From Dipteris shenzhenensis (Eukaryota), in the NCBI GenBank assembly GCA_047967505.1, contig CM106538.1: a stretch of DNA of 64,000 bases. One strand, given 5' to 3'. Both the position numbers and the translations under genes were made by a program. The notes beneath the pieces were generated by a model that worked only from the letters and a program-made list of their open reading frames with translations, did no database searches and was not told where the DNA came from. Positions 2,938 through 59,600 of the stretch are shown here, one piece after another; the first letter of the stretch is position 1; the number at the start of each line of letters is the position of its first letter.

Positions 2938-4741
2938 GGATAGTCAGCTGGAACATACAGGGCCTAGGCGGAGTTCCACACCGTCGCCGTAGGCAGCTGA
3001 TCCAGAGCCAGCTTCATCTAGGCATCATTGGAGGTGCTATTGATATCCTTTTTATCCAGGAACACAGGCTGGATGCCATTGATTTCTCTAAGTTTGGCAA
3101 ACTGCTTTCAGGACATACCTTCTGGTCGCCTGCTATGGGCACAAGGGGAGGTACTTGCATTTCGGTCTCTCTTTCTATTCTCCCCTTGGTTGCTGGTCAT
3201 GGTATTATCTCCCCTTCTGGAGCTCAATGGATCATTATTTTGATTGGAGGGCGTAAGATTGGTCTTCTCAATCTTTATGCTCCCAACGACAGAGGGGAGT
3301 GGATCTCCCTTTGGAAGGAGCTACTCTCTTGGGCCCCCATTGTAGATTCTTGGATCATTGTGGCGACTTCAACATGGTTGAGTTGCCTTCAGACAAAAAG
3401 GGAGGCAGATAGGATGGAATTCATTCTTTGGAGAGGGCAGCCTGGGATGCCTTCCTCTTTCAGTTCAGTGGTAGGGACACTTGGTTGGATGATGCCTTTC
3501 ATATTATGCCACAGTCACTCCTGTACTCTTGGTCGAACAAGAGAATACACATGCCCATTCATGCACGGATTGATAGATTTTATGTAGACGATTGGGCACT
3601 TGACGGAGGAGGATCTGTGTGCATTTCTACTGAGGTTTCCACCTCAGATCATTTTCCAGTGGTGTTGCAGATTCTTGAGCCTCATCGGAGAGGACGCTCT
3701 GCCAGTGTCAGGATTCCGGATGCTTTTTATGTAGAGGAGAGCCTTACGAAGGATATTTTACAGATTTGGGTTTCTCACATACAGGGTGGAGCTGTCCACT
3801 CATCTTAGGTAGCTGCAGCCTTATCCGGAATTAGTGACTATTATCATACAGTCGTCGCTGATTCTAGGAGACGTGAGATTCTCAGATGTGAGATTGGTAT
3901 ACGCCAGTAGTTAGCGTCCCTTTAGAGGGAAGAGCAGAAGAGGCCCACAGATGCTTGGATTCAGGAGCGCCTTGCTGTAGCAAGGGCTCATTTGCAGACA
4001 TGTTGGATCAGAGAGCAGAATATGCCTTTCATGCACGGGAATCCTTTTGGATTCAGATGGGCGGTAGGGTCAACAAACACTTTTTCTCTACTCATGGGCC
4101 CAAACATAGTAGAGATAGTGTTTCGCAGCTTGTTGACTTAGACGGGGTGTTACAGTCAGATCTTGATGCTGTCATGCGTGTAGCTTTAGATTTTTTTGCA
4201 TCCCTTCTTACTGCAGATCCAAGCACACAGGACATTGATGATGCCAGAGAGGTTATTTGGCAGTGTATCCCTGTATTAGTGAAGGATGAGATGTATGTTT
4301 CTCTGGATGCACCTTTCACCAATGCAGAATTCAAGACTGCATTACTTGCCCTTCACAAGGGCAAGTGCCCAGGTTCAGATGGACTTACCCCCTCCTTTTT
4401 TATTACTTTTTGGAAGCAGATTGGTGATCACATTACATCAGCCCTACAGGGCGTGTGGGACTCTGGTGAGATGCCGGACTCACTTACAGATAGTCTCATT
4501 CATCTCATCCCAAAGGGGGGTAATAGGAATCTTGTGTCTCAATGGAGACCCATCACTCTATTGGGCACTTTTTACAATATTCTGGTGAAAGCCATTAGTC
4601 TACGGCTACAGGTTTTTCTTCCAGATTTGATTCATGACACGCAGACAGGGTTTGTGCATGGCAGAAGTATTTTTGATAATATTTGGGAGGCCTCAGAATG
4701 GGCCATGCAGAGCTGCCAGAGATTGGCCATTCTACTCTTGG
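2934..4741 (+). pseudogene. LINE ORF2 fragment (APE endonuclease + RT N-terminus), frameshifted
   Basis: ORFs 2934-3587, 3428-3808 and 3955-4782 join into EN-RT through frameshifts and stops. Confidence 0.92.
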
Positions 4742-38990: not shown

Positions 38991-41900
38991 CCATGAATGC
39001 ACCTTTGCCATAAAACTGAAGAAAATCTTTTATATCCTCAAAAGCACCCCAAATGGATTTTGGTCTATTGGGCTCTTTTTTCCTTCGCGACTCATTGTTC
39101 GTTTAGCATGGTCTGTATCTGCAAAGCCTCGAAGTCTGCCAGGAGGGTATCGTTGTGTGGTCATGTCTTCTTGAGTCTGCTGCAGCTCTTGTTCCAACTT
39201 CTTTCTGACTTCAATTGCTTAGACTCCCTGGCCTCTACCATTAGGCGCTTCACTTTCTCCTTTTAGAGAGCTGCTTTCGTCTATCCGAGCCTCTGGTGGG
39301 TCTATAATGCGATGAAATTGTGTCACATGAAAATTTATTGTCGCCGTCGGAGAATGTTCTTGGCGGCGGCTATCAAAGCCGTGATGGAGTCCATGAAGGC
39401 CATATCCTTGCTCGCAACCTAGTTTTCTTCCATCAACAACTTTTTGTACCCCTCTTGTGAAGCGTAGGCGCTGGAGGTGTAGAACTCCATGGCCTGCTAA
39501 TAGACATTGGGGAGAACGGGGGAGAGGCTGTTGGCCCGGGGTAGATGTAGGTGGTCGACGGGGGTTGGGCTCTTGTGGCTCCTGTGTAAGATCCGTTATG
39601 TCTTCTCTCTGGTCAATAGGCCTCTTCAACTTATGTTCATGACGTAGACGTTTAGCAATATCTGTAGCCATCTTCTGCTCTTCCTCTACGTGGAGCCGTT
39701 CGATTTTCCCTTGCTGTTGGAGGTCCTGTCGCTATTTTTCGTCCCCTTCCCATTGTATTTTAGGCGTCCTCTTCCTCCTGGAATCTGCATGCGACCTCTT
39801 CACCTCGCTGCCTTTTGGCAGCTACTTCCTCCTGTACCTTCTGGCTTTGCTTGTCTCTTCTCCTTTTTGGTGAGGGCTTTGTCGGCGTGGATCTGGTGGA
39901 GGGAGCTGCGAGTAAGGCCAATGTCTCTTTCCGCATCACCATAACCATCCAGAATGGGATCATCAAATAGGTGTTCTACGATGGGAATCAAGAACATTGG
40001 GTTGCCACCCTTTTTGCCGTACGTACGGATACTGATGATTTTGGTGCAAAAGAAATCAGCCCAATTTTTGGATTCTGGCTCGTGGAGACGAGCCAAAAAA
40101 TTCAGAAGCACCATGTTGTGATGCTCTGGAGCTAGATCTGCACTAATAAGGTGATGGCGCGAGCTATCTGGGCCAGTGCTGCGTCCTTGATGAGGTTGAT
40201 AGGGACTCCTCCCCTGTGTACTTTTGAATTGTAGACGACCAATGTGGCCAACCGCTTCTCCATAGCCCACAGCTTGGCAGATGGTAGGGGGTGTGCCAGG
40301 AGATTAAAGACGAGCTAAACTATTTCTACCATGAATTGGTGGTAATGATAATCTCCGTCAGTGTGTGTAGCCAGCTAGTGGTGCGTGCCGCTTGATTGTA
40401 ACAATTGATGAATTCCACTGCCTAGCGGAGAATTGAGGTGGTAGGGAAATCAATCGGTGACTGTCTGCAGTCCCACTGATCGGATATAATGCACCACCTC
40501 TAGGTCCTGGAGCGACTGGTAGGCTACCACATTGTGATAGTAGAGCCGGTAATCTTTGGCATTGCATTTGAAGTGTGAATGCATCACCACCCCTTGTAGC
40601 TATTTGAGCCGTCTTGCCCAAGAGGTGAGAATTGGGTGACTTGACCACATGCTCTGAAAAGTTATGGACATTCTGGACATCAGCAAGGTCTAGGATGCGG
40701 TGCTTGTGGAGCGTACAAGTGCTTGAGTACTGAGAATTTAATCTCATGGGTAGGTTGATGAGCGGAGTGTTCTTGCTCCATCTGGTCGGGTAGTGGCATG
40801 GAGATGATACGTGAAGATGAACGTGTGGTAGAGTGGGGGACGGTAGATGTCACTTTGTTGATTAGCTATTTGATGGAAAAGAGGTCGTGGACGCAGTGGG
40901 TAGGAAGTCATTGCATTATCCGTATAGCAGTGCGGCTGAGTTGGCCATCGCGTTGTCAATCTTGCTGCATTATTGCTATAGCAGCGACTCAATTTTATGG
41001 GTTTGATGAGGAATTTGACTGCTTGATTGACTTCTCTGGGCTTCACCTATTGTGTGCAAGTGCATGTGAAGTGGTATGGATGATGTGGCGGTGGAAGTTG
41101 AAAGTATTATGATGTGACCTTGGCCGTGTGGTGAGTGAGTGACTTGGTGAATGGAGTGTGAGTGAACTTGTGGACCCTATTCACCTAGTGGAGATGGACC
41201 AAACATTTATGGAGTGGAGGACTTGACAAGGAATGGCACATACTCATTTTTATTCGAAGATGATGTGGCATGGACCATACCCTATTCTCACCTATGATGT
41301 TGACTCTCTATTCTCACCTAGACCCTGTGCATTGGACGATGGATTGAAAACCTTAAGATTTAGAATACCTTGCATCTCTCCAGGAGGCATAGCTGCTTAG
41401 CATGCCTATAAAGAGCATTTGGGAAGCTTGCAGAAGTGGTGTCACTTATTCGTTGGTGCCTTTAACTGATTGTAGCAGGCTTGAAGCTTGTCATAAACTT
41501 GCAAATCCATCAAGATCCAGAGATTGTTATGAGGGAATTAGCATTTTAGTCCGGTGGTTGCAGCGCATGAATAACAGTTGGTTCTTGTGGGTCTGTCACC
41601 ATTTTAGGGACAGGTGTTAGTGGGTCTACTGTGTTGGCTGTTGGTGTCAAAGCGGAAGGAAAGGCTGAGATTGAGGGGATAAATTTCAAAACACACTGGT
41701 CCTCATTCTTCCCTTTGAGCATAGCAGGTTCTTGTGTTGCTGTCCCCTCTCTAGGGAAAGGTTCTTGTGTAATAGCCACAACCGCTTGTGTTGCTGATTC
41801 CTGTAGCATGATCACGTGAGGGTACAAGGGAGGGTCCCATGGTCGTATATTTTTTGTATTCGCTTGTGAGCTTCCAACAGTAGGCTCTTGTGTATCAATC

Positions 41901-42894
41901 TCATTTTTAGAGGCAGGTTCTTGTGGCACTACTATGGTCTTTGCCATGGATGATGTAGGGTGTTGAGTGGTACACATTGGAGACTTGCACGCTTTAGGCA
42001 CCCATATGCAGTTGTAGCTTCTAGCAACTTTTTGGTATCCACCGAGAGTGTTGTTGCCGTTAGCCTTTCATTGGCTTCATCTTTGGGAAATGGTCTTTCA
42101 TCGTGGCTTAGCTTGGACCTTTGTGGATGGAGAATGGGATTGGAGCGGCAGAACTGCATCCTTACTTTGTCTCGACATGATCTTGGAGGCAGAAGTGGAG
42201 ACTGTATCCTTTGGGAGCTCTTGCCTTGTGTGTTTGGTGCAGTTGTGATAGGCCCATTCTTTTTTGTCGGTATGGCTGCAGTTAGATTTGAATTAGCTTA
42301 GCGGCAGCTGGAGTAGATAAGGGAGCCACAATTGGGACCACTAGGATCATAGGCTATTTGCCAGCCTTCTTTGTTATAGGGGATGCTGGAATGGAAGTCA
42401 CTTCATTGATTGTGGCAACCGAGGTGCAGCCGTCATTAGTTAGAGTCATCATTGTTCTCGCTAATCAATTTGGCAGTTCATTGCCCAACACCATGTAATT
42501 ACCTATTCATCCATGGCACCTTCTGGCATAACATAAAATATACTTGGCATGCAATGGTTATTAATTGGTAAAGAAATCTTGATGCGACCTATAGCAGGCG
42601 AGATTTTGCCATTTACTACATGTATCATAACAAGTGTGGGTTCCAGGGTTATCTTAAATGTTAGTAGTCTGGTACACATTTCTTAAGAGATCAAGTTGTG
42701 GCTGGCACCAAAATTGATGAAGGCGTCGACGGAGCATATTGTTTTCTTGCACAGTTGAAAATCGGCTTGTACCCTTGCAGGGGCGACAGTCAGGTCCTCC
42801 ATGGGGTTGGGTATGTCTTTTCTCTGAGCGCCTTGGTCTGAGCACATTTTTCTGAGCATGGCCTATATTGTGATTTTGTAGACAATTTTATCAT

Positions 42895-43100
42895 AACATC
42901 ACACACCATTTAGTCATAAAACTACCCCAGGAAGATACTATATACATTTCTACCCCACAAAGATGCCGCTAACATCACACGCCATTTAGTCATAAAACTA
43001 CCCCAGGAAGATACTATATACATTTCTACCCCACAAAGATGCCGCTAACATCACACACCCTTTAGTCATAAAACTACCCCACAAAGATGCTATATACATT
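42895..43100. repeat. Left subterminal 76-bp tandem repeat (~2.7 copies)
   Basis: aacatcacac-ccatttagtcataaaactacccc... starts at 42895, 42971 and 43047. Confidence 0.92.
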
Positions 43101-43881
43101 TAATTACATTTCTTTCCAATAGTATTTAGGGCTTATAAGATCCCTTTATTCACAAAACTACTTTTTATGTCTACTTCATTTCAACACCCTCCACCTTCCT
43201 CATCCATCATTCATACTATCATGATAGATAGTGATTTATCGATGAAATGATTGCAAGTCACATGGTAAAGAATTTAGGGTGCAAATTTGCATGCATCTAT
43301 GCCGAAACATTTATTAGTTGCATCAAGGAGATACTTTAAGATTCAATTCACCATCATGATCATTTGTACACAACTCATAGTTTTGACATGCAAACCTTAA
43401 GTAAGATATGACATAATTGTCACATCTCTAGCAAATAGAAAAAGTTTTATGAAACCAACATGCTCAAAATTGAATATGTGATATTGAGATTAATATTCAT
43501 GGGTACTCACATGATGTACTAATAGTTCTTCAATATGATTACTACATCTCTAGCAAATGAAATAGGTGCAAGACACCACAAAAGTTATGCATGTTCAAAT
43601 CTAGGGCATCACAAGCAAAATGAATTGCTTGAAGGGAAAAACTCATGTCAAATCACTAGACTTAATCTTCTTTACTGATTTCATCCACATAGATATTGCG
43701 ACGATGCCTTCTCTCTTTGATGGGGGCATTGAATGCAATGTCATTGCACATCATCTCAGCCAGAGCACCTGCATAAGAAGGCAAAAAGCTAAAATAGATC
43801 AATCAATATCAATGCCTCATTGATAATAATATTCTCCAACAAATAGGTTTAAAAAGATAAAACAAAAGAGTAACATACTTA

Positions 43882-46800
43882 CTAGTCATCTAGAAGATTA
43901 ACAACCATTTCCACATCTTCGGAATCATTTAGAGTCCCATAGTTGCTTAACACATTTCCCTTTCCTTTCTGTCCATCCAAAAATGGTTGCAATATAGAAT
44001 AGCAAATGTTAGGATCATTCTCAATAGATAAGCATGCTCTCCCAGAATGCATGCATGCTTTTTACATAGAACCACCAGTCCCAGCACCTAAGTCCACCAC
44101 ATGTCCAGAAATTGGACACAACAACTCCAAGAAGTACAATATCATGCATGGAGCCTTCTCTAATGCACCTCTCCATGGAATACTCTCTCCATGTTTTATA
44201 GTCTGCTCACTTGTTGGTAAATAATGATGAAACAAACTACTTCCAAAAGCAATGCCCAATTTGGTACCAACCACGGAAGCATTTCTAGGATTACAAACAT
44301 AAGACATACCAGCCCAATGAAGAAGGCATAAAACCACAACATCCACCTAAAGACAAGAAAATAATTAAACTTATGCTTAGTACAAGCCATTTCATTAAAC
44401 AAGAGCATAAATTCTTTCAACAGGTCATTGTAAGACAATTGTCTCACCTTATGATCAATACCACCAACTTTGATTGTACAATATGCATCCAAGTATTGCA
44501 TGTACTTTTGACATGCAAACTCCAATCTGCTGATCCTAGCATAACGCTCAACCAAATGAAGAACATGAGGGGCACACATAATTAGGATCTAGCCAGAATC
44601 TGAAACAACTGTGGCCGCTACTAGCAAGGAGTAGCGTACATGGTCCTCTGTTAATAAATTCTAAGATGGAGATGAGGAATCCTCTACTCCAGGAGCTTCT
44701 AGCTGTGTAGGCAGATCTAGAATGACAAAATCTGTAGCCCAAGCAACACTCTTACCATTTCTTGTTTTTCTCTCACCTCCAAGACCCGCAAAGTATTCCT
44801 TCATGTCTATATAGGCTTGTGTGAAGTTTGAGACAGACAATTGCTTCCCAAACTCGACATAATCATAGCACCAAACCTTGCAATGTGAAGCATCACATGT
44901 GCCACTCCGATTCAAAGTTAGAGAGGCCAATGGAATGTACAAAAAGCGGATAGACCTATCTTTTCATTTACATCCTTTCAAAATGGGTGTAGACTGTAGT
45001 ACCTACACATCTGTATCCACACCACATATGTAAAGACACAAAGTGATAACAACATATGTTACACAAACAAATAACAGACCAAGAGGGCTTACCATTATTA
45101 GTACTAGGATTTTTTGGTGGCCTACCACCCTTCTTTAGTTCCATACTTGAATCCTTGTCCTTTTTAGTCATCTTCTCAAGTGTTTTTTGAATCTCAATGA
45201 CTGCATCATCCTCGTGGACTAAATTTGAGCTTGATGAACCCATCTCTCCCTTTTTATGCTGTGTGTACAGTTCTACCTCCTCCTCGATGCAACATCCTTT
45301 TTTCATATCGAGCCACCACGGGCAGTTCTTTCTCTCCCACTCAGAGAGCACTTACTTTCCTTCTTTTTCTATCATGTTTGAAGAGTACATACAGAATTTT
45401 AAGTCCTGAATTTTTGTCCATACTTGACATATGGGCAACAATTTTTCAATCTTACCAACGGCTTTTAAGGATTGTAAGAATCTACATACAATAAGAGTCT
45501 TAGTACAAAAGCAAAATACTTAAGGATGGATTTTTAATTGAAAAGGAAAAAACATATATTACTTACCCAAATACCAATCGTCGAGATGCCCTCGTCATCT
45601 CCATTTGTCTTGTTGCAGCTGTAACAATAGTCATTAAATCCTTTAAATCTTCATAAAGTTCAAGTCTGTTCATTGCTTGTATCTCCCCAAAATACTCTCT
45701 CAACATAGGATCTTGAGGAAGCACAAAGCTAGCTTGTTGACTAGCAACCAAGACCTAAGAGAGTAACCTCTCAGATTCACAAAGCAACTGATCCATCCAT
45801 GCCTCTTTCGCCATCCACTTTATGCATCCACTTTATGAATTCTCTATCAGCTTTTGGCATCCCATAACTTGTTCTCAAATTTGAATTTGACCCTAAGATT
45901 CTGAGGGTTGCTAGTTGTGTCTCCTTGGAGACCTTTGCAATGGAGATGTTATACAATTTTTCCAATGTGACAATGGAGGATTTATCATCAAATGGGAGGC
46001 TCCACAAGATATTAAACCAATCTTCACCATTTGTTGGTTTGACAATAGACAGAATCTACATATAAACAATACATGCAATCATCACACTCAAGTGTATTTT
46101 CTGATCATACAATACATGCATATCCCATACCTTGATCATTTTCTAAACAAAGATCATATTTACATCCTTTTTTAACGTTCTTTCTCAATCTCAAAAAACA
46201 TTTGAACACTTTAAAAATTCAACTTTATGTTAAGAATCATTAAATTAACCATACCTTGATCATTTTTCGATTGTACTTGAGATTCACATCCTTTCGAATA
46301 CTTTTAAGTGCTTTCTCCATATTAGCAACACTCAAATTTGGCTGAAGTTCCTTTAGCTTTGCCTCATAATCTTGCTTGTATAGTGGCTAAAATATATTCC
46401 AAAGAAACGAATGAGTACAATGAAGTAGTTAGTTCTAATTCAAAAGACATCCATGACAAATGGTATGAAACTTACTGCAAATACCATTCTCCCTAGCATC
46501 AGAGATGTCAAAGGATACCAAGTGCTTGATCCTTTACTGCTTTCATTTGCCCTATGCTTTTCAAGTGTCTTTTTTTCTTTCTCAGAAAAAAGTGATATGT
46601 ACTCATTCTCATCAGACGAACACATTATCTTCGTGTTGTACAAATAATCCTTGAGATTTGTTTTCATAATTGTTGTTTCATTAAGGCTAAAAAATAAAAA
46701 ATATATAGCTTCAAACATATTAAGAATTGTTCACAAAACCCTTAAAAGCTAAAAAAAAAGTAACACATATGAGCAAGAACTCGCACTTACAGATTGAACC

Positions 46801-47560
46801 TTTGAAGAGCAGTTATTAGCTTCATTTCTATTTCTTTCTCTGGAGTAATAAAACTTGTTAAAACTCGAATATGCCATGCCTTTGATGTCTTGAATTTCTC
46901 GTCGATTAGAGACATCCATGCAACAGTCCAGTGATTCCCCTCCCACACAAAAAACATCTTTCGAGACAAAAATGACCAATCAGCATCATCAACAATCTGT
47001 GCCTCAAATTCTGCATTTACATCCCTCCAACAAGAATCCCATGATTGTTCAATTTCATCTATCACCTCTTGTGAAACACCATCTGGAAGTGTTGTAGATA
47101 AAATAAACATTCCTTTCTGTTGAATATATTTTTCTGCCTCTAGAGCTTGCTTTAGGCTATCCATATCAGTTTGTAGGCCTCTCACTCTTGTGTTTACAAC
47201 ACAACGACATAATGGGATCAAGGGAGCAATCTTTCCAGGATTGATTGCAAGAGATTCAATAACATCCTTCCCCTGACCAATATCAAGTGCACCAGGAAAC
47301 TCTTGCTCAAACTCCTCGTCCAGTTGTTTATCCTCTTTCTTTCTCTTCTTAGAAGATTCCTCCACAATTATAGTAGTGTCTTCAAAGTCTTCCATCTCCT
47401 TATCCTCTTCAACTCCAATTTCAACCTCTTTTTGAAACTCTAAATTAGGTGTAGATTCCACTTGCAAACTTCTCTTGCTACTTGTCCTTCCACCTCTCCT
47501 ACCTCCTCGTTCTCCTCTTCCACCTCTCCCCCTCCTCTCAGAAGTTCTTATTTTTACCAT
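43882..47560 (-). pseudogene. ParB/sulfiredoxin-like domain + permuted (beta-class) N6-adenine/N4-cytosine DNA methyltransferase fusion, multi-exon
   Basis: Predicted GT-AG exons: 47560-46791, 46686-46476, 46386-46255, 46055-45567, 45481-45093, 45002-44448 and 44346-43882. Exon 1 has RVRGL...FFVWEGNHWTVAW (GnHR-like). Exon 6 has DFVILDLP (motif IV-like). The last exon has EKAPCMILYFLELLCPISGHVVDLGAGTGGS-KACMHSGRACLSIEND (motifs X, I, II). Several stops and a 13-bp frameshifting duplication. Confidence 0.8.
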
Positions 47561-48230
47561 CCTACCAATGTGACACAAATGCATTTAAAAAAAGAAGTCA
47601 TCGCATGGCATAGAATAGACTGACAAAGTCAATTAAGTCCCAGTGTTACTTCAATAGCATACAAAGAAAGCCCAAGAGGCTTCAAAATAGAAAATACCTG
47701 AAGCTTGATTGTGATGCTGCTAATTGAAGCTACACTTGACGAGATGATGGGGCTTGAAGAGGCTAGCTCTATAGATCCAAAGGTTGATGAGGGGGTATGC
47801 TACAAGAATTCAAAGAGAGTACAAGAACACAGAGGAAAAGATGACTAGTTATGTTGCCTTTTAAGAAAGAGATGAAGCACCTATGACTTGTGAAAATGGC
47901 GGGGCATGTGGCTCGAAACCCGAGAGGGAGGGCTTGGAAGCCTTGGATGCAAAACGAGTGAACGAGGTAGTCGAGGCCCAGAGGCGACTGGCGAACGTAA
48001 TGGAAGTTGTGAGTCCAAGGAGCAAGAGCCTCGAAGGCCAAGCGAAACCAACGCTTCTATAGCAAGAGTTTGTAGGACCGGGCAGTAGCACAACAACGAT
48101 AATGGGAGGTACAAGGAGTCTGCAGACTCCGAGGTTTGCAGCGTGGTCAGTGGGCTGCAAGGAGTAGGGCTAGAGGGCCTACTCTTGAATCAACGAATCA
48201 TCTAAGACTCAATCTGCCCAATCCTCTGCC

Positions 48231-48607
48231 GGAGAGCGGGGAGAGCGAGGGAGGGAGAGCGGGGAGAGCAGGGAGAGCGGGGAGGGAGAGCAGGGAGAGC
48301 GGGGGAGGGAGAGCGAGGAGAGCGAGAGCAGGGAGAGCAGGGAGGGAGAGCGGGGAGAGCGAGGGGGGAGAGCGAGGAGAGCAGGGAGAGCAGTGGAGGG
48401 AGAGCAAGGAGAGCAGGGGGAGGGAGAGCAGGGAGACTGGGGGAGGGAGAGCGGGGAGAGCAGGAAGAGCGAGGAGAGAGGGGGAGAGCAGGGAGAGCGG
48501 GGGAGGGAGAGCGAGGAGATCAGGGAGAGCGGGGAGAGTGGGGGAGGGAGAGCGGGGAGAGCGGGGAGGGAGAGCAGGGAGAGCGGGGGAGGGAGAGCGG
48601 GGAGAGC
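48231..48607. repeat. Purine-rich GGGAGAGC(G/A) microsatellite-like tract
   Basis: Dozens of gagagcgggg/gagagcaggg units with almost no T on the plus strand. Confidence 0.95.
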
Positions 48608-48629
48608 CTTAAAAAAAGGGCCTTAAAAA

Positions 48630-49985
48630 TTTTTCTTAAGGGCCTTTAAAAAAAAGGCCAAAAGACCCCTTTCGTCGACGAAAGGGGTCTTTTGGCCTTT
48701 CATTTTCTAAAATTGGACGAGGAGGAAAATGGCCTTTAAAAAAATTTTCTTAAGGGCCCTTGAAAAAATTTGAAAATGAAAGGGCAAAAGACTCCTTTCG
48801 TCGACAAAAGGGGTCTTTTGGCCTTTCATTTTCTTAAGGGCCTTTAAAAAAAAGGCCAAAAGACCCCTTTCGTCGACGAAAGGGGTCTTTTGGCCTTTCG
48901 TTTTCTAAAATTGGACAAGGAGGAAAATGGCCTTTCGTTTTCTAAAATTGGACAAGGAGGAAAATGGCCTTTAAAAAAATTTTCTTAAGAGCCCTTGAAA
49001 AAATTTGAAAATGAAAGGGCAAAAGACCCCTTTCATCGATGAAAGGGGTCTTTTGGCCTTTCATTTTCTTAAGGGCCTTTAAAAAGAAGGCCAAAAGACC
49101 CCTTTCATCGACAAAAGGGGTCCTTTAGCCTTTTATTTTCTTAAGGGCTTAAGAAAATTAAAGGCCCTGTCTATTGGCCTTTAATTTTCTTAAGTGCTCT
49201 CATTACAATTAAAGTTCACATTGATATTTGTAGAAATAATCATCCCTCTTCCATGATAAAGAATACCTTTTTTGGCAAGGGACCACCACATGGCCTCGAT
49301 CGACCCAAGTACTTAACGCTGGCACTCGTTTTTATTATTTCAAATCATTACAATCAATGCGTTTATTTTATTCACCATGACGGGACGACATACTAGCTAT
49401 AGAAATGCTACCAAACTATGATGTTAATAGGAACCATGACTTATAATGATTATCATACGAATTCAATTGCTAATGAGTGATCATTTAATTAAACATCATT
49501 ACTGTGTGAGGTTGATAATTTTTCATAATTGTGAGGTTTATAATTTTACTGTGTGAGGTCAACATATAATTAAATATCTTTTTAATTAATTTTCAATTAA
49601 TGATAAAGGCCAATAGACACCTTTTGGAGAAAATAATTCTTATTTATTGTTAATGGACGATAGAGGCAATTAGACCCCTTTTGGAGAAAATAATTAAATA
49701 TAGAGGCCAATAGACCCCTTTCGTCAACGAAAGGGGTCTATTAGCCTCTATATTTAATTGATGGTTCATGAAAGATAGAGGCCCATAGACCCCTTTCGTC
49801 GATGAAAGGGGTCTATTGGCCTCTACCTTTCATTAATAAATGATGAAAAATAGAGTCCAATAGACCCCTTTCATCGACAAAACAGTCTTTTGATGAAGGG
49901 GTCTATGGGCTTCTATCTTTCATAAATAATTGATGAAAGATAGAGTCCAATAGACCCCTTTCATCGATGAAACAGTCTTTTGGCA
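48630..49985. repeat. Array of ~9 long palindromes, core GACCCCTTTCGTCGACGAAAGGGGTC
   Basis: Perfect 48-bp palindromes at 48653-48700 and 48851-48898. Variants at ~48773, 49007, 49087, 49692, 49768, 49851 and 49941. Confidence 0.95.
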
Positions 49986-50479
49986 TACTTTTAACATCAT
50001 AATTTATATTCAAAAGGTTAGAGATGTGCTGACCAACCATTTCTTGTTCACCACAATTATAATTTATATCTATCTATCAACTTTAAAATACTTATATCAA
50101 ATTGTCAAAATGAATATGTAGCAATAATGCAATGTCATTGCTAGCAAGAATGGCTTGCAATAACTCCCATACGTGTCAAAGAAAGGCTGGGGATTAAAAG
50201 ATCTAAGAGTCCATGGTATTATAGTATTGTTGTTAACAAATGATGGCTAAAATTTACATCATGGTTCAGTACTATTGTCACACTTGTGCCGACTTTCACA
50301 AGACCAATCTTACAAAGTTGTGAGTATAAACAATGGGCAGTGTGTGCAAAGCATTTGTGAGTAACTTTTCTTGCGGTAGACTCTTGTTTTAAATGAGTTC
50401 TTGAAACGAACACTCTGCTCTTGATCTCGCCCTTTGGACTTCATCTCATTGAGTTGCACAGCTCAACCATTCCGTTCTT

Positions 50480-53400
50480 ATGGAATTTGTCACAATTCAG
50501 AATGAGGATAGATCTTTGCATATGTTTGTTCGCACTTCCATAGGTAGAGGAGTGTTGTCAGAGATGGTGCTTGCTAACCATTTTCGATTCACACTTGGAT
50601 CCATATCTGTCCATCAGCACTTTGGTGATAATGGGTCTGATTTGACAATGGAGCTGCAATATGAAGTCCATGATGATGGATACAAAATGTTTCACCTTGA
50701 TGTGCAGTTTGGTGATATTTTCACCGTGAAGGGAGAAAGATTCAAGCTTGATGACAATGAAATTCAAAAGACTCAAGTGCACGAAAACAAAAAGGATTTC
50801 TACTCTGTTTGCAACAAAAATGATGAGGCAAGGAAACTGATTCAGCTAGCAACATTGAGAATGACAAACAACATAGTGTCATTGAGATTATTATGCAACT
50901 ACCTATAAAGAATAGATTGCATGAGGCCTATGAGAAGGTTGAAATGCACGTCACTGTGGATGAGTTGCCTTCTACTTATGATGGTGATGTTTTCTTTGAG
51001 CTACCAGCTACTTCAATGAAACATCGCACAAAAGGTACGGAGTCAAAATTTGATGGTCATGTTTAGAGTGATCCTATTACAATAAATATAGTATTTCCTG
51101 GTGTGGTTCATAGAAAGGAATGTGGAGGTCACCTCCGTTGTATAAATGCAACTTGTGGTTATAAAAAAAGAATTGGGATAGAGAATGAGACACAATGGGA
51201 TGGGAGATTGATTAGAGTGGCCCCAGCAAATGTGTCAATTGAATCATATGGCTCCTTATCATGTATACATTGTGGTCGTCCACCAATTTGCTTGGAGAGA
51301 TGTTACTGTGAAATATTACTCTGCATGCCAGAATGTAGAGATGGTGTGAATCTTACTCGTGCAGTCATACACCATGGCCATCATAATCATCCCGTTGGAG
51401 ATGGTTTGACTAGAAGAACAAAGGATGCCATTAAAACCAAAGTTTCTGAAATGGTGAGGGCTGGTGGTGCTGTATGCCCTAAAGGGATACAAAATATAAT
51501 TGTCCAAGACATTATTCTAGAAACTTTATTGTCTAAAAAAGTGCAAGATGGGATTAAGATGTCAGATGTTGAGCTACAAGATTTGCTAAAACAATGTGAA
51601 CCTTTGCTCAACAAAAGAAGGTAATTACCATAATATTTGTTATTGCATTGGTTTATTAAATTATGTTATTGATAATGAATATTGACCAACTTTATGTCTG
51701 TGTATAGATTATCAAGATGGATCGAGGAGGCTCGACGTGACTCTCGACCTATGTCAGATGGGCTAGATGGAATTTTATACTTGAAAAGACATTGTAGATA
51801 TAATTATTTCCAAAGTGTAGTGTTTCCTAGACAATTGCAACAAAGTTCATTTAGCAGGTGTCATGTATTTAAAATGTCTACCCAAGGTTCTGGTTCACGG
51901 GTTGATTTGGTAAATAAAATGAGACCTGGAGGAGAATTGGGTCATTGTTGGGTGTTGTTTGACTTTGTGAAGCGAATGAATGATTGGAAAGATGGGAGCA
52001 GTTCTGCAAGGCTTGGCCTGCAGGCATCTTCTACACCCTTTCCACGGGGGGATATTTGCTGGATGCATATGCCACCACCCTAGTTGTTAGCCCCTGTTCC
52101 ACAGATTCCCTAGGCTGTGCGCTCGGTTCTCTAGGAAACAGGCTAGTTATTTCTGACAGCCAGTTGTTTCTCTTGTACTTAACTTCCATAGTTCCTTTTG
52201 GCAGCTGAGTTGTACGATGTTTTTCAAGCATTAGTAGAAGCTTCCTTTTTCTAGGGGGGAAAAAAAAGTTTCGTGAAACATGTTTCGTATTTTTTGCATA
52301 GAAAAGTTTTGTGATTTTGATAGGAGTTTCGCCTAGGAACACGCTCTGTAAAATGCAGCAACTTGTGATCAAGGTGGAAGATACTGATGCACAAATTCTA
52401 TTTTGGGATACTCTCAACAAAGTAATGGTTTCAGAAGGGTTTAACAATGCTGAATTCAAAGGGTTCATGGCAGATGAGGCCCAAGCCAACTGGAGAGCTG
52501 TACATGCCACTTTCAATGGTGGCCCAGACAATATAATGGAAGGGAAAGAGCGTTCTTGCCTTTTCCATTGGGAGCAAAGTCTTCATTCCCATGCAAAGGC
52601 ATGTATAAAAGTTGGCAGCCAAGAGGAATTTAAAATCCGATGTAGACGTTGGAAGGATGCCTCTACAGAGCAAGCTGTAGAAGTCAAAATGAGAAGCCTA
52701 AGGGCATGGTGGAATGCAGGCCATGCAAGTGATTCAGACTTGCCACGGCTTGAAACTTGGTTTGCATGGTGGCATGCTAGGATTTCCCATTGGGGCCACT
52801 ACATTATAGAGGTTGGTTTTGTATTTCTCTTGAATTTTTTTAAATCATGTTTATAATGTAATTTTGCCATTACAATATCTCTGCAATGCTTGGTTTGCAG
52901 AGTATGTTAGATAACGAGAAGTACTTGATACCTCAAACAAATCTAGCAGAGTCTATTCATGGTAGTTGGAGGGCTGGATTGAACCATGTCAAATATGTTG
53001 GTCTCTACAATGCCTCTATCAGTGACCTCTCAAATGCAATTTTACAAAGCTCTAGATACACATCTTTTTTGAAGGGCCAGTTTATCGGAAGTGGGCCGAG
53101 TCTAGAGACCTTAAAAAAAAGATCTTCAAAATCTCGGATTGACATTAGTGCCAAAACAGTTGTTGATCTAACAAGTAATGTTGCAAAGGAAATGGGTGTT
53201 GTATCTGAAGTATGTTTTAATGATGGAGATGACAAGACTATGCGAAGGAAAAGGCCAAAGTCAATGCCTTCAAATATATGTGAGGATGATAGTCACCGCC
53301 TTGAGTACAGTTATGCAAATAAGAAAAGATACTCCATGTCTCCAAAATCTAGTACTAAATTTGCAACAGAGAGTTTTGAGGATGATGATTCCAAGAGTGT

Positions 53401-54232
53401 ACAAGAATATGAAGTGCATGATGCAAATTGGGCATTACGAAGAGTTCCTATAGCAAGCCAAGTCTGTTGCCAGGCTTGGCTTGGACAAGGAGGAAAATGT
53501 AACAAGCTTGTCAATATAAAGGATCATGAAAATTGACGTGGAGTTGTTGCACCATCATTCTTTGGGAGGATTCAAACACCAATTGGAGTGCACTCCCAAA
53601 TGATTTGGTTTTGTGGAAATGATGTAACCCACACGTGGAAGCCATCGACTAGCATTACAAGTATTCCAGGACCATCACCAGGAAGGTGGAAGGTTCAATC
53701 AGGAACATCCTTGACAAGTGTAGAGATTGCCAGGTTGACAAGCTCGGGGTTTGTCATATTAGGAGTGTCAACTCCGATGGTGGGTGCAAGTTGTGTTTCA
53801 CCAATTCAAGCCCATGATGAAACAATAGTATTGCATGACGATCGACCTCGGCGTCGAGATGGCAAAGCAATCAGATGACGAAACAAATTCTCCAAAGAAA
53901 TGGAAGATAGAATTCAGAGGTCATTGGTCATGAAATGCATTGTTAAGGACGCAACCGTCGTGAAGGCCATGGAGCATGCTAAGTTTATTATTTCTACAGA
54001 AGGATCAATGCAAAAAGGTATTGAATACAAGGTTGACATTTCTCCATTTCCTTCTTGCAATTGTGAAGACTTCATTGGATGATCATGCAAATTGGATGCC
54101 TATATTCCATGCAAACATATTTATTACATCTTCCTTTCATACCTTGGATTGGATAGCAGAAATAATATGTTTGTTCACCAAGCCACCTTGAGTAAAAAAG
54201 AGATATTCCAGGCATTGTCCCGCATGCCTTGA
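50480..54232 (+). pseudogene. MULE-type DDE transposase with N-terminal GCM/WRKY-like zinc domain and C-terminal SWIM finger
   Basis: Motifs CGGHLRCINATC...CIHC...C-C...HGHHNHP, VLFDFVKR, FMADEAQAN, SCLFHWEQS, TNLAESIH and SCNCEDF...PCKHIYYI. Introns at 51621-51707 and 52812-52900. Premature stops at ~50906, 51064, 53534, 53876 and 54080; foreign segment at ~51990-52335. Confidence 0.87.
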
Positions 54233-55260
54233 GGTTTAGTTTTTGGAGACTGTACTTTCATGATGGTCAACAGAAAATGGAAGGGCTATTATAATAATCC
54301 TTTTTCCATGAGGATTTTGAACCACAAAAATGGTATTTTTTTTAGGACTGAACCTTCATGATGTTGAATACAAAATGAAAAGATATCTATAATAATCCTT
54401 TTTTCCATGAAGATTTTGAACCACAAGAATAATGTTTTTGGAGCCTTTTGCATTTCTCCTTGTGTAAAATTTTGGTTTGTTTCTCTACTTGTTGATAATT
54501 GTGGCAGGACACTTTGTAGAAAATTTATTTGAAATAACATGAACTCAACACATCTAGTAGCCAAATACCAAACTATGAGTAAAATATTGACTTAAAATTT
54601 GGCTATATTTGTTACATTTCCTTTCGTACCTTGGATTGGATATAAGAAATCCTTTTTTCCATGAGTAATTTGATAATTGTGGTAGGACATTTTGAAGGAT
54701 GATTTTACATCACAAAAGTTTGAACATGTCTTCTATGTGATAAATTATGTCTTCATTTTCATTTGCATAGGTTGAAAACTTATTTGAAATAATATGAACA
54801 TGTATTGGAATATACAACAAATAATAAAATAGAAAATATTGTGAGTGTATTTGACTTAAAATTGGGCTATATTATTTACATATTACTTATATGGATAGAA
54901 AAGATAATATTTTTGGTCACCAAGCTAACTTGAGTACAAAAGAGATCTTCACAGCATTATCTTGCATGCCTCAAGGCCTGGTTTTTGCAAATTGCACACC
55001 TTCATGATGTTGAACAAAATTTGAAAGGACTATTATAATAATACTTTTTGCGATGGAGATTTTGAACCACCAAAATAATGTTTTGGAGTCTTTTTCAATA
55101 CTCCTTATGGAAACTTTGGGCTATTTCTATACTTGATACTTGATAATTGTGATAATTGTGATGGGACGCCTTATAGGATGATTTTACAATCACAAAACTT
55201 TGAACGTGTCTTTTACGTGATAAATCATATCTTCATTTGTAGTAATGTAGGTTGGAAACA
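54120..55260. repeat. Mosaic tandem duplications of the transposase 3' end/3' UTR
   Basis: 54150-54240 recurs at ~54893-54980. tataataat-ctttt...gattttgaaccac occurs at ~54290, 54388 and 55033. cctttc-taccttggattggata occurs at 54133 and 54620. Confidence 0.8.
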
Positions 55261-56000
55261 TATTAAAATTGTCAATATAGAATAATTAGAAAACTATGAG
55301 CTAGTGTAACAAAGATGCAGAATACTTGATTTTGCTAAGGTCGAATGTAATCTTTCTTTTTTTTGGTGGATTATACATCCCATTTAATCAAAAAAGGGGT
55401 CTAGCAACTTCAAGATTTGTTTTTTGGTTATTGGTTGTTGTGGTTTATTAGTTTACAAGGTTAACCACTTCTTTTATTGAGCAATATGGACCCTTCATTT
55501 ACAAAACAGTTTCATAATCATGGCCTCATTTCATGAACTTCAAGAGGTAGAAAACTTGTTTAGTCAGAAATGAGGATATCTATTTCATTTCTTAAGCAAT
55601 ATGACCCCTTTATTCACAAAAGGGGTCCATACACTTGGATTGTTTTCATAAACTTTGACACAAAAAAACTACATTCTAATCCAATTTGCTCAAATGCTCA
55701 GATGGTTTTGCTCAAAAATTAGAAATCCCCCATGGGGTTTAACCCTTCCACGGATGCTTTATAAATTGATATAAGCCCTAAATTCTTTGCGTTGGCTTGA
55801 AGCACTCTAGCCTCTTCAGATGCTTGTTGCTTCATTCGAGCGACATCCTTTTTAAGTTCCTGTTCTCGATGGATGGCATGTAACGTTTGCAACGTTAAGG
55901 GGTGGTAGTAGTACTTAAGCTTACTACCATTAATATAGCCATCCATCTCAGTACTCGGAAGGAGGGCTTGACACTCATGAAGGGAGTGGGAGCACCATCA

Positions 56001-56203
56001 GCTTTGATACCATGATGAAGAGAGAGAGAGAGAGAGAGGAGTGCACACATTATAGCTACATGTACACTATGTTGTATTGAACATAAACATGAATATATAC
56101 ATGAGAAATCCTTAGGGTTAGTGTTAGGGTTAGGATAAGGGCTAGGGCTAGGGTTTGCCCTATGAGCCCTATCTAGATAGTACAATTTACACTGTCCTCA
56201 ACA
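56001..56203 (-). mobile_element. Truncated LTR element: one LTR (56013-56203) plus PBS
   Basis: Minus strand TGTTGAG...TCA is followed by TGGTATCAAAGC (tRNA-iMet PBS-like, 56001-56012). Contains telomere-like TTAGGG motifs. Confidence 0.7.
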
Positions 56204-56654
56204 TGTCTTCGAATTATTGCAAACTTCAAAGAATCAATATGAGCATGAAAGATCAGGTCCCAGTTAGGTGCTCGCAAGATCGAGGCTAAGGCTAGGACAA
56301 GTTTAAGGGTTTCATAGGAGGTTTGACTCTCTTCCGTCTAGTAGAAGATGACCAATAGTTTGTACAATGGGCGGGCAATCTCAGCATAGTTGTATATGAA
56401 TCTACGATAGTAGCCTGTTTGCTCGGTAAACCTTTGTCAACGTTTGAAGATTGGCATATTGTGTCACTCTGCAACTCAATTGGATCCCATGCACATCAGT
56501 TCTGCTTGCGTCTGTATGCTTGGAGGTTTCTTAGTCTTGAGGGTATCGGGAGTAGATTCTCTACTGCTTACAGTTACTCGATCCCCCTTTTTCTCCTAGC
56601 TGGGGGCCACATGCATCTAATAAAGGTCAAAACACTATCAAGTCAGGATGACAT

Positions 56655-59600
56655 TGTGGGGGTTAAAGGTCACTGTGCCTTAACCCCGGTTATGTACAAT
56701 ACTCAAACACATATATAAATGAATGAAAAAGAAGATTAGGGTGGTTCTGCACCCACCAAAACTTGTGTGGCTCTCTGTCTCTCTCTCTCTCGCTCTCTCT
56801 CCTTCTTCCATTCTTGCTTCCGTTGAGAGCACTCTCAACTGGTATCAGAGCCCGGGTGATCTAGCTGAGCGTGCGTGAATGCTTGAAGCTCAGCAGCTCT
56901 GTGGGAGGAAGGAGAAGCTTTGTGGGAAGCTTTGTGGGTGACTTTACTTGCATCCGAGTGTGCAGAGACCTTGGAGGAACCTTTGGAAAAGTCACTTTGG
57001 CTTTGCGAAGTGGTTTTGAGAGCCTGTTAAGAGCTTTCAAAGAAAAAGTCGTTTTTTGAGCTTTTCCCTGTTCCGTTCGATGACAGAGACTCCGTATTGA
57101 CTTGTAGAGGCAACTATTGCTTGCTTTTGGTGTCCACATTACTTCAGGAGCTTGGAAACACCTTCATTCTTGAATCTGGGATCATTTCAGTGGATTTCTG
57201 AGTCACTGTGTCAGTTCCTGCGTTTTTTGCCCGGGTGTTGGAACTCAAGTTTGGAGCAACCATTTGCAGATCTGTCAGTTCCGGTGGACTCAGGAGGTCC
57301 TAAAACTTCTATGTTGCTCATCATTCGCACTCCGGTGGAGTTTACAAACAGCTCTGTTTCTAAAAACGTTTTTCAGCCCGTGTGTTGGACCCAGTGATTG
57401 AGACCACGGTTTCCAAAACCGTCTGTCCCATTGCATTCCGGACGCCCAAAAACCCCTACCTATCAGTTCTTGCGTGAATCGGTGGAGGATTTTCAGAGTT
57501 ATAAATCTCTGTGTATTCGATTTCGTCTCTCTGTTATGCATTTTTCATACTAAGGTTTTGAAACCTTAGATTTATGCCACATGGCAGTGGATAAGTGTTG
57601 ACTCCCATTTCTCACTCATCGGTTGGGATTTTGGAGTTCTGGCAGAAGAGAGATATTTGCAGATTTTCTTGCTGATTTCGATTATGCAATGGCGCCCATG
57701 TTTTGAGGCATCTCAGGTTCTATTTTCAGTAGCGCTCATTACCGTGGGACTATGATTTCTTGAGCATACCTTATGCAGATCACTCTGGTTGCAGTTTGAG
57801 TAGTGTGCGCTCATTCGTGGTATGCATTGGGTTGCAATGGATGATTTATAGGCCATTTGGATGCATTGCGGTCCTTGTTGGATGCGCTGATAGGCCCAAA
57901 TTGCCTTATGGGATGCTATTTTTTATGGACGCTTTGCACATGGATGCTATTTTATGCTGAGGGACAGCTTTGAAACATTGCAGGTGATGCACTGATAGTG
58001 CTATGCTCTCTTGGATGAGACATTATTGATGCATATGCCAGTGGACAGTGTTTATGCTTGAGTCATTTGGCACTTATTGGCATTTTCTTTTGGGCCAGAT
58101 TTGCTCATATGGATGCATAGTATATGCACATGAGTCAGATGCTTTGAGCTTTGAGTTTTGGTGATATTTCACTCTATTGTGGCATACACATTTGGGTGCA
58201 CCTAGTATTTGGTGTGATTCTCTCTTGCAGGCACTAGCATTTGGGATTTTGCTTTATTTGCATCATGGCATCCTCTTCCACATCTGAAAAGGAGTTTTTC
58301 AGCATTAGAAAGTTTGATGGGACAAACTTTTCTTTGTGGAAAGAACAAATTAGGGATGTGCTTATTCAAAAGAAGCAGATTAAACCCTTGGCAGGGATTG
58401 AAGCTAAGCCTGCAAATATGTCTGAGGATGATTGGAATGAGTTGGATGCATTAGCAAAGTCTACTATTAGACTTCATCTTGCAGAGTCAGTTTATTTCAC
58501 AGTAGTAAATGAGAAGACTACGGAAGATTTGTGGAAGAAATTGTGTGCCACTTATGAAAATGAAACTGCCTCTAATAAAGTTTACCTCATGAAGAGGTTG
58601 TTTGAGCTGCAGATGAAGGAAGGGGTCTCCATTGCTTCTCACTTGAATGAATTCAATATTATTTTCAGCCAGCTTCAGGCTCAGAAAATGAATTTTGATG
58701 CGGAGACTAAGGCAATATTTCTCTTATGTTCATTGCCATCCTCATGGGATACCTTCCGTACAGCTGTCAGTAACTCTGCACCTGGTGGAGTACTGAAATT
58801 TGATGATGTTGTGGGTAGCTTGTTGGCCGAGGAGATTAGACGGAAGTCTATGGATGGCAACAAGCAGGATGCAGCCTTAAATGTGCAAAGGGGCAGATCA
58901 CAGTTCAGGGGGAAGTCCCAAGAAAGAGGGAAGTCTCGTAGCAAATCCAGGGCACGGAACATTGAGTGTTACCATTGTGGCAAGAAGGGCTATATGAAAA
59001 AGGATTGCTACAAGTTGAAAAGAGAGCAAAAGGATAAGAAAAAGAATGCAAATTGGGGTGCAAATCAAAAGGAAGAGAGTCCAAGGGAGGACAAAGGAAA
59101 AGTGAAGATCGAGGAGATCAATGCAGTCACACGTGATAGTGACAATGATGTTCTCTTCATGTCTAGTTTATCTGCAGAGTTGCTTACCACTTCAGATGAT
59201 GCATATTCCCAGGATTGGATTTTGGATTCTGGTGCTTCATTCCATGTTACTCCCCATAGGGAATGGTTCTCCACTTATGATAGTGGAAAGACAGGTTGTG
59301 TGCATCTTGGAAATGACTATGCATGTGACATAGTGGGAGCAGGTGACATAAAGTTTTCTTTTGCAAATGGGTCTGCATTTGTTTTGAAACATGTGAGACA
59401 TGTGCCTAAGCTGACCAAGAGTCTTATTTCAGTGGGTCAGCTAGATGATGCTGGTTTTCACACCACTTTTGGCTTTCAGAGTTGGAAAATTCAGAAGGGC
59501 TCTATGCTTTTGGCCAGGGGTGCCAAGTGTGGGACTTTGTATCCCTTACATGTATCAGGGGTATTTGATCATGTTGTTGCAATAACCGAGCAGCCAAGCA

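Follow-up and report, generated by a model that had tools for sequence, protein, structure and literature searches.

Does a fern genome carry, as a gene with introns of its own, a DNA methyltransferase of a bacterial and phage type? Beta-class amino-methyltransferases belong typically to those two groups, and a stretch of Dipteris shenzhenensis DNA raises the question of whether one of them has been taken up by a fern. The stretch is 64,000 nucleotides (nt) long and comes from NCBI GenBank assembly GCA_047967505.1, contig CM106538.1. We call this whole stretch the window and number it from its first letter. A preliminary description, made from the letters alone, had read a permuted N6-adenine (N6A)/N4-cytosine (N4C) methyltransferase domain into positions 43882-44760. 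Our answer is a qualified one. We consider it likely that the window holds a decayed copy of a multi-copy family whose named relatives are so far all from ferns, that the proteins of this family end in a beta-class fold, and that the gene is cargo of a mobile element.

The motifs on which the question rests are found on the minus strand. DFVILDLPT is encoded at 44732-44706, with the motif IV-like DLPT at 44717-44706. The motifs of the S-adenosylmethionine (SAM)-binding half are WRGALEKAP at 44175-44149, VVDLGAGTG at 44100-44074 (its GAGTG at about 44088-44074) and GRACLSIEND at 44043-44014. The motif IV-like element lies N-terminal to the GxGxG element, just as the preliminary description had it. 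The two are read in different frames, and an intron (44447-44347) lies between them.

These motifs belong to a much longer gene. Three relatives, P0032 (1008 amino acids, aa), P0028 (958 aa) and P0031 (854 aa), align with the window by tblastn in one collinear series from 47413 to 43900, with 30-50% identity and E-values down to 5e-81. The gene is thus collinear with hypothetical proteins of 730-1008 aa from Adiantum ferns. The segment first described makes up the 3' half of this gene, which runs on the minus strand from 47584 to 43662 and has about nine exons.

To find the family, the 154-aa product of the C-terminal exon was compared by phmmer with 1.84 billion representative proteins. It matched 24 proteins at E ≤ 1e-3 and six at E ≤ 1e-10, the best at 1.7e-21 with 47% identity. 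Together with the tblastn E-value of 5e-81, this homology rules out a chance resemblance of motifs. In the first search for full-length relatives all 11 matches were hypothetical proteins of Adiantum nelumboides or A. capillus-veneris; in the second, eight of 14 were Adiantum hypothetical proteins and the other six were unnamed short fragments. A homologue search with P0001 as query returned no match among longer proteins. Judged by sequence similarity, the named relatives so far come from ferns only, where the encoded proteins are about 950-1000 aa long. A. nelumboides has at least 12 paralogues with annotations of their own, many of them truncated. Three long repeat proteins that matched in 8-10 short stretches (P0016, P0018 and P0023, the last two with unrelated Pfam domains) were excluded from the alignments. 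Eleven short fragments (P0006, P0007, P0009, P0012-14, P0017, P0020, P0021, P0025 and P0027) stayed outside the profiles A1-A3 and entered the motif count only. Our full-text literature search found no account of a fern or transposon-borne N6_N4-type family; in PMC9477723 the passage on a 'DNA methylase' concerns CMT genes and not such a family.

What fold do these proteins have? An intact relative, P0029 (469 aa, C-terminal half), was modelled with AlphaFold2 (AF2) from an 18-sequence alignment. The model has a mean predicted local distance difference test score (pLDDT) of 69 and a predicted template modelling score of 0.61, with residues 124-400 mostly above 85 pLDDT. A Foldseek search of the PDB placed CcrM first (E 8e-11), and M1.HpyAVI, M.BceJIV, MboIIA, RsrI, PvuII and the rotifer enzyme N4CMT all matched below 2e-7. 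VIA gave the highest Z score to M.BceJIV (20.1; 218 residues aligned, root-mean-square deviation 3.0), followed by CcrM (19.9), MboIIA (19.7), N4CMT (18.2), PvuII (17.8) and RsrI (17.2). Each of the 20 best VIA entries (Z 15.5-20.1) is a DNA amino-methyltransferase or a Mod subunit, and MT-A70 enzymes score 13-14, below every beta-class DNA enzyme. In a library of viral structures, Pandoravirus and phage N4/N6 methylases came out on top.

The model thus bears out the fold that had been proposed, including the suggested comparison with M.RsrI, M.MboIIA and M.PvuII. The beta-class, Rossmann-like topology is seen on the relative P0029 rather than on the broken protein of the window. A match to an unrelated class I methyltransferase, or the lack of a Rossmann fold, was looked for and not found. 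On the strength of this model, the last ~280 residues of the fern proteins are predicted to form a permuted beta-class SAM-dependent amino-methyltransferase fold. N6A and N4C enzymes are at most about 3 Z units apart (17.2-20.1), and hence the base specificity cannot be read from the structural ranking.

Sequence profiles align the motifs with those of known enzymes. The reference alignment consisted of nine enzymes, Escherichia coli YhdJ and eight phage methyltransferases. Comparing the family with it by hhalign yielded E-values of 1.7e-4 in local mode (60 columns of the SAM-binding half), 5.7e-5 in permissive mode and 1.1e-6 in global mode (~230 columns in both). DLPT falls on DPPY, EKSP on TQKP, LELGAGT on LDPFAGS and VIDND on GIEIN; in addition WSVDLCLVDLPTG falls on SVDLIFADPPYN, and DDNGW...VMC on KKQGS...IMN. 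A second reference set, the methyltransferase halves of five phage ParB-methyltransferases, produced the same mapping (E 3.8e-4). In the P0029 model, DLPT (residues 186-189) directly follows the strand 180-186, and ELGAGT stands at 358. Identity to the reference enzymes is 10-15%, with ~60 columns confidently aligned. Pfam matched none of the three window pieces. No DNA-methyltransferase model of NCBIfam matched either, and that search returned only weak matches to unrelated methyltransferases.

The active site is where the family departs from known enzymes. In none of the 13 sequences covering this segment does motif IV follow the consensus (D/N/S)-P-P-(Y/F/W); all of them read D-[L/F]-P-T, those of subfamilies only 24-27% identical to P0029 included. 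The reading DLPT of the preliminary description is supported. Position 2 of the motif does not seem critical, as DIPY and DILY occur among the phage references. The SAM-binding half is kept better. The positions conserved in at least 90% of sequences (S818, C857 and D863 of P0028) all lie in this half. E-x-G-x-G-T or a close variant is present in 26 of the 41 family sequences scanned, and many of the others are fragments without the region. The K-P box aligns to TQKP...DPFAGS...GIE (E 1.7e-4), with the His-Pro of the box absent.

In amino-methyltransferases, the target base, once flipped, stacks against the aromatic residue of motif IV, and in several of them replacing this residue by a non-aromatic one strongly lowers activity. 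A threonine at this place makes canonical N6A/N4C catalysis doubtful. The strict conservation of the altered loop, however, indicates that the loop has a function, and conservation of the motifs in the SAM-binding half indicates that SAM binding is probably retained.

We propose the following picture for an intact module. Its C-terminal half probably still binds SAM, as the best conserved positions are those of E-(K/R)-S-P, of E-x-G-x-G-T and of the acidic residue that closes the following strand. Its N-terminal half would offer the loop D-[L/F]-P-T-G in place of D-P-P-Y, with the Asp and one Pro kept. Such a module would be directed at nucleic acid and bind SAM, and its methyl transfer would be atypical or weak.

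The copy in the window can no longer make such a protein. Its gene structure, assembled from tblastn matches and spliced RNA reads (run X18, described below), is as follows.

46791-47584, minus strand: exon 1, open for 265 codons from the ATG at 47584; tblastn matches to P0028 36-246 and P0032 139-315 at 44-45% identity; RNA joint 46672/46791 (3 reads).
46673-46790, minus strand: intron 1, with the donor GT present and AA in the window where the acceptor AG is expected; joint 'skips 118, TT..AC' in run X18.
46476-46672, minus strand: exon 2, with tblastn matches to P0028 244-316 and P0031 112-181.
45567-46055, minus strand: middle exon or exons, with a change of frame near 45819-45823, where the window has 13 extra bases (frameshift).
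45093-45483, minus strand: exon with the Cys/Trp-rich 'WERKNCPWW', found by tblastn; RNA joints 45483/45569 and 45010/45093; in-frame TAA at 45354-45352.
45011-45092, minus strand: intron with GT..AG ends; joint 'skips 82, CT..AC' (3 reads).
44448-45010, minus strand: exon for the N-terminal half of the methyltransferase-like domain, containing DLPT (44717-44706), placed on DPPY by hhalign; stops at 45005, 44966, 44663 and 44591.
44347-44447, minus strand: intron inside the methyltransferase-like domain, 101 nt, GT..AG; RNA joint 44343/44445 (cut shifted by +3; 3 reads).
43883-44346, minus strand: exon for the SAM-binding half, containing E-K-A-P (44160-44149), VVDLGAGTG and GRACLSIEND; TAA at 44064-44062 and 3 extra bases at ~44071.
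43789-43882, minus strand: last intron, GT..AG; joint 43788/43883 in 4 reads and joint 43766/43881 in 5; a second acceptor, at 43770/43769, is used as well.
43662-43788, minus strand: last exon, with the terminal TAA at 43664-43662; it matches the C-terminal tail LLPCFAADEANFM... of P0029 and P0028.

The product of exon 1 starts with an acidic/basic low-complexity N-terminus, followed by a conserved domain with FFVWEGNHWTVAW at its end. The frameshift in the middle exons is visible as two tblastn pieces that are contiguous in protein and DNA and lie in different frames; a DNA contig of high depth and two RNA reads do without the 13 bases ('45812 left out 13'). The 'TAG' at 43884-43882 is not a stop, because its G already belongs to the last intron, whose donor GTAAGT starts with it. 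Just downstream of the 3' end of the gene, 42894-43121 holds three tandem copies of a 76-nt unit, two of which are 99% and 70% identical to the first.

When the last four exons are spliced as the RNA reads indicate, the frame reaches the TAA at 43664-43662 with six in-frame stops inside (45354, 45005, 44966, 44663, 44591 and 44064). Two of these stops lie between the motif IV-like and the GxGxG elements, and one lies inside 'GAGTGGSM*KA'. The 13-nt insertion near 45812 is further decay. With six in-frame stops and this insertion the window copy cannot make the protein. As a locus it is no more than an ordinary pseudogene; what deserves interest is the family. The preliminary description was thus right about the domain, the order of its motifs and the introns, and it overlooked the broken frame. 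The locus is one member of a repeated and probably transposon-borne family rather than a single host gene.

Are related copies expressed? We aligned three raw-read RNA runs (X18, X19 and X20) and the DNA run X1 to 43400-47800 at a likeness of at least 90%; the RNA runs have the same species label as the runs of the best-matching DNA. From X18, 110 reads aligned, most of them (68) with a likeness of 95-99%, a further 40 with 90-95% and two with at least 99%; from X19 there were four and from X20 none. The spliced joints listed above, from 46672/46791 to the alternative 43766/43881, are each carried by 3-5 reads of X18. Among the seven joints listed for this run, five are skips with GT..AG ends on the minus strand, which confirms that spliceosomal introns interrupt the gene.

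The X18 reads differ from the window at fixed positions and hence originate in close paralogues, not at this locus. At three of the six stops the reads have sense codons: TGG through T>C at 44662, CAA through A>G at 44064 and CAA through A>G at 45354. A DNA contig likewise has TGG at 44663 and G at 45354 (CAA). The other three stops lie outside the positions listed for the RNA reads. The 3 extra bases at 44071 are also missing from X18 reads. Near-identical copies of the gene are transcribed and spliced.

Two thirds of the protein have no assignable fold: an N-terminal domain ending in FFVWEGNHRTASW, a helical middle and a Cys/Trp-rich piece, 'WERKHCPWW'. One idea for the N-terminal domain was a ParB/Srx domain (PF02195), suggested by 'FFVWEGNH(R/W)T(A/V)(S/A)W'. 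Within it, 'EGNHRTA' would resemble the GxxRxxA box of ParB. No Pfam, PHROG or NCBIfam match supports the idea. Comparing the domain with seven phage or prophage ParB domains by hhalign gave E-values of 0.18-0.88, and for the N-terminal half AF2 produced no usable model (pLDDT 41.9). DUF6824 matched weakly in five of 21 family members (best E 0.041).

How does such a gene come to be present in many copies? Logan contigs of run X1, which comprises 1.7 billion letters, cover 43402-47768 in pieces, six at a word depth of 480-513 and one minor piece at 11.5, word depth not being a copy number. The main contigs are 2.5-4% diverged from the window (11 of 440, 31 of 841, 43 of 1243 and 51 of 1198 letters). 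For a run of this small size, a depth so high and uniform suggests a high-copy repeat, one decayed member of which lies in the window, and the many truncated Adiantum paralogues point the same way. The window as a whole is rich in transposons, with LINE-like (long interspersed nuclear element) reverse transcriptase and endonuclease open reading frames (ORFs), copia-type polyproteins and a zf-RVT domain. Two features lie next to the gene.

50453-53536, plus strand: Mutator-like element (MULE)-type transposase-like gene in five ORF pieces, divergent from the methyltransferase-like gene and 3 kb upstream of it.
48645-49980, no strand assigned: palindrome array of about ten near-perfect palindromes of 40-60 nt with the core GGCCAAAAGACCCCTTTCGTCGACGAAAGGGGTCTTTTGGCC, in two clusters between the divergent genes; repeat families D1-D5 and I1-I25 of a repeat search, with self-BLAST as further evidence.

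One of the MULE-like pieces is Cys/His-rich and ends in ...HHGHHNHP; another reads 'FMADEAQANWRAV...CLFHW'. In a search of a protein-language-model atlas with 52302-52856, MULE clusters made up 24 of 30 matches with a top score of 0.93, which we treat as a lead only. The palindromes could be nested MITE-like (miniature inverted-repeat transposable element) insertions or binding sites of the element. Beside the array lies a GA-rich minisatellite (48222-48648) with a period of ~9 nt that in several frames translates into GRAGRAGE/GERGE repeats. Most probably, the methyltransferase-like gene travels as cargo of a high-copy mobile element, and the Mutator-like element with the transposase-like gene 3 kb away may be that element.

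A number of observations weigh against the reading given so far. The structural evidence is a predicted model, made from a shallow alignment of 18 sequences, and the modelled relative shares 32-35% identity with the window exons. The Tyr of motif IV (Y43) is invariant in the nine reference enzymes, and the fern family has Thr. PF01555, the Pfam family of the beta-class enzymes, does not recognise the proteins: its gathering cut-off is 26.7 bits, and the best score, reached by one of 21 family members, is 13.3 bits (E 0.084). Sequence and profile searches of the PDB gave nothing significant (best E-values: P0002 by phmmer 0.54; profiles A1 0.5 and A3 1.5). The best match to a PHROG DNA methyltransferase has an E-value of 7.5e-4 and concerns a single protein (P0028 819-868). 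In all four RNA reads that cover 45400 there is a 7-nt deletion, while the window and the high-depth DNA contig keep the bases. Hence the RNA reads do not demonstrate an intact expressed copy; either the expressed paralogues have a frameshift of their own, or another subfamily may be the source of the reads.

The mobile-element part of the reading meets objections of the same kind, beyond the caution on word depth. The MULE-like gene has no Pfam match at E ≤ 0.1. Repeat search and self-BLAST found no terminal inverted repeats (TIRs), long terminal repeats (LTRs) or target-site duplications around the two genes, and comparing 40500-43700 with 53400-56700 gave no inverted match beyond a best one of 17 nt (E 0.11). 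As no element ends were found, the cargo status is indirect and the link to the Mutator-like element is one of adjacency. The copia insertion at 56654, for instance, may have truncated the element.

Which other explanations could account for these data? The intact members might be fully active DNA N6-adenine or N4-cytosine methyltransferases, with D-[L/F]-P-T-G a working variant of motif IV and the window copy a dead paralogue. The fold is nearest to active DNA enzymes (Z 17-20), and the SAM-binding positions are the most conserved of the family. All 13 sequences with the loop, from subfamilies only 24-27% identical, retain its D, P, T and G, which suggests selection on the loop, and annotated phage methyltransferases, too, differ at position 2 of motif IV (DIPY, DILY). 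We nevertheless find full activity doubtful, given an aromatic fourth residue that none of the nine references lacks, the strong loss of activity that its replacement causes in several amino-methyltransferases and the failure of every Pfam model to pass. The loss of the stacking aromatic in 13 of 13 sequences would suit the opposite explanation, a non-catalytic pseudo-enzyme that serves the element as a SAM- and/or DNA-binding subunit, for example in recognising its ends or as a partner in the manner of METTL14 or MTA9. The structural matches include complexes of the MT-A70 type that have inactive partners, and the long extra N-terminal and middle regions that make up two thirds of the protein would leave room for such a role. 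A pure scaffold, however, would be less expected to conserve motif I and the acidic ribose-binding position, and no partner is known; this explanation, too, we hold only tentatively.

A further explanation keeps the enzyme and changes its substrate to RNA, protein or a small molecule, as in an MT-A70-like N6-methyladenosine RNA enzyme or a generic class I methyltransferase. Methyltransf_23 matches four of 21 members weakly (best E 0.017), P0022 matches a corrinoid-protein methyltransferase (E 1.1e-4), and the structural matches extend to MT-A70 enzymes (Z 13-14). The generic matches span only 40-60 residues around GxGxG, however, the top 20 VIA entries are without exception DNA amino-methyltransferases or Mod subunits, and E-(K/R)-S-P aligns to the HPTQKP box typical of PF01555 enzymes, which together make this very unlikely. 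For the role of the module, we give some DNA amino-methylation somewhat less than an even chance, a non-catalytic SAM/DNA-binding subunit a slightly smaller one, and another substrate the remainder. Apart from function, the family could be an ordinary expanded host gene family, with the window copy a pseudogene, processed or duplicated, that has come to lie among transposons by chance. The annotation of two Adiantum genomes retains members of the family as genes, they have many introns and are transcribed, and no element ends were found. Against this we count contigs that are 2.5-4% diverged and cover the whole gene, six of them at a uniform depth of 480-513, in a run of 1.7 billion letters, the many truncated paralogues and the adjoining MULE-like gene, and we judge a host family unlikely.

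How does the fern family, read as a probably transposon-borne beta-class family, compare with known systems? It shares with the bacterial and phage beta-class enzymes (PF01555; M.BceJIV, CcrM, M.MboIIA, M1.HpyAVI, M.RsrI and M.PvuII) the fold over ~200-235 residues (Z 17-20) and the order of motif IV, variable region and then motifs X, I and II. A hydrophobic strand precedes D-x-P in both, W-(N/D) follows the loop, and a K/R-x-P box before a helix, a G-x-G-T loop and an acidic residue ending the next strand are common to them. In contrast to these enzymes, the fern family stays under the Pfam threshold at 10-15% identity. Its motif IV is D-[L/F]-P-T instead of (D/N/S)-P-P-(Y/F/W), and its motif I is E-[LM]-G-x-G-T instead of D-P-F-x-G-S-G. 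The fern domain is the C-terminus of a ~1000-aa eukaryotic protein with spliceosomal introns and many copies.

The closest eukaryotic parallels are rotifer N4CMT (PDB 8s9m/8s9o; Z 18.2) and Marchantia MpDN4MT1a/b, the latter compared by description and not by sequence. Both are beta-class domains in intron-bearing eukaryotic genes. N4CMT is a permuted N6_N4_MTase with five introns and, according to its paper, has no eukaryotic homologues (PMC8885841). MpDN4MT1 groups with prokaryotic N4C enzymes in the Marchantia study (bioRxiv 10.1101/2021.02.12.428880). Unlike the fern family, these are single or duplicated host genes that PF01555 recognises and that have demonstrated N4-methylcytosine (4mC) activity, and N4CMT has a chromodomain in addition. 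The fern family, apparently high-copy, escapes recognition by Pfam and departs from the canonical motif IV, and its members are putative enzymes.

Phages have fusions of a ParB-CTPase fold with an N6_N4 domain, and such ParB-methyltransferase fusions are reported to be enriched in phages (PMC12704722). In these fusions, as would be the case in the fern proteins, a C-terminal beta-class methyltransferase follows an extra N-terminal domain, and the methyltransferase halves align at E 3.8e-4; the fern N-terminal domain, however, lacks detectable similarity to ParB. The MT-A70 enzymes (METTL3/METTL14 and ciliate MTA1/MTA9) have a permuted Rossmann topology as well and include inactive partners with a degenerate motif IV. 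They differ from the fern family in their scores (Z 13-14 versus 17-20) and in lacking the K-x-P box and the C-terminal GxGxG arrangement that is aligned in the fern family. With D-[LF]-P-T instead of a DPPW-type motif and the lower structural scores, the fern proteins do not qualify as MT-A70 members. Mutator-like elements may carry a second gene that is not a transposase, as maize MuDR does with mudrA and mudrB. A MULE-like transposase gene beside a second large gene resembles this arrangement, although the two genes here are divergent and neither TIRs nor target-site duplications were found.

Why does this matter? The papers cited here (PMC8885841 and bioRxiv 10.1101/2021.02.12.428880) describe two eukaryotic recruitments of beta-class enzymes, rotifer N4CMT and Marchantia DN4MT1. 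Here the predicted fold occurs in a multi-copy family that is transcribed and spliced, with an active-site loop that is consistently altered and a domain that no family database recognises. If intact members are active, they would be a transposon-linked source of N6-methyladenine (6mA) or 4mC in ferns. If they are inactive, the family would be a natural case of a DNA methyltransferase fold turned to another use on a mobile element.

The boldest version of this reading is that a high-copy fern transposon, possibly Mutator-like, carries a horizontally acquired, intron-bearing beta-class enzyme whose D-L/F-P-T-G site still writes 6mA or 4mC. We regard it as unlikely. If it were true, the element would itself place marks on DNA and could in this way control its own transposition, for instance, or disturb silencing by the host. 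It would then be a third independent eukaryotic recruitment of a bacterial or phage-type amino-methyltransferase, this one transposon-borne, after bdelloid N4CMT and Marchantia DN4MT1.

The remaining mobile elements of the window are of known types. A copia-type LTR retrotransposon occupies 56654-62572, with direct repeats of 184 bp (56654-56837 and 62389-62572) that are 100% identical. It has a gag-protease-integrase ORF of 880 codons (58238-60880, open) and a reverse transcriptase-RNase H ORF of 511 codons (60801-62336), and is probably a very recent insertion. LINE-like ORF sets, with an endonuclease, a reverse transcriptase and a zf-RVT-like tail, lie at 1700-6800 (both strands) and at 15900-20200 (minus strand). 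The two sets encode similar proteins and are decayed copies of non-LTR retrotransposons.

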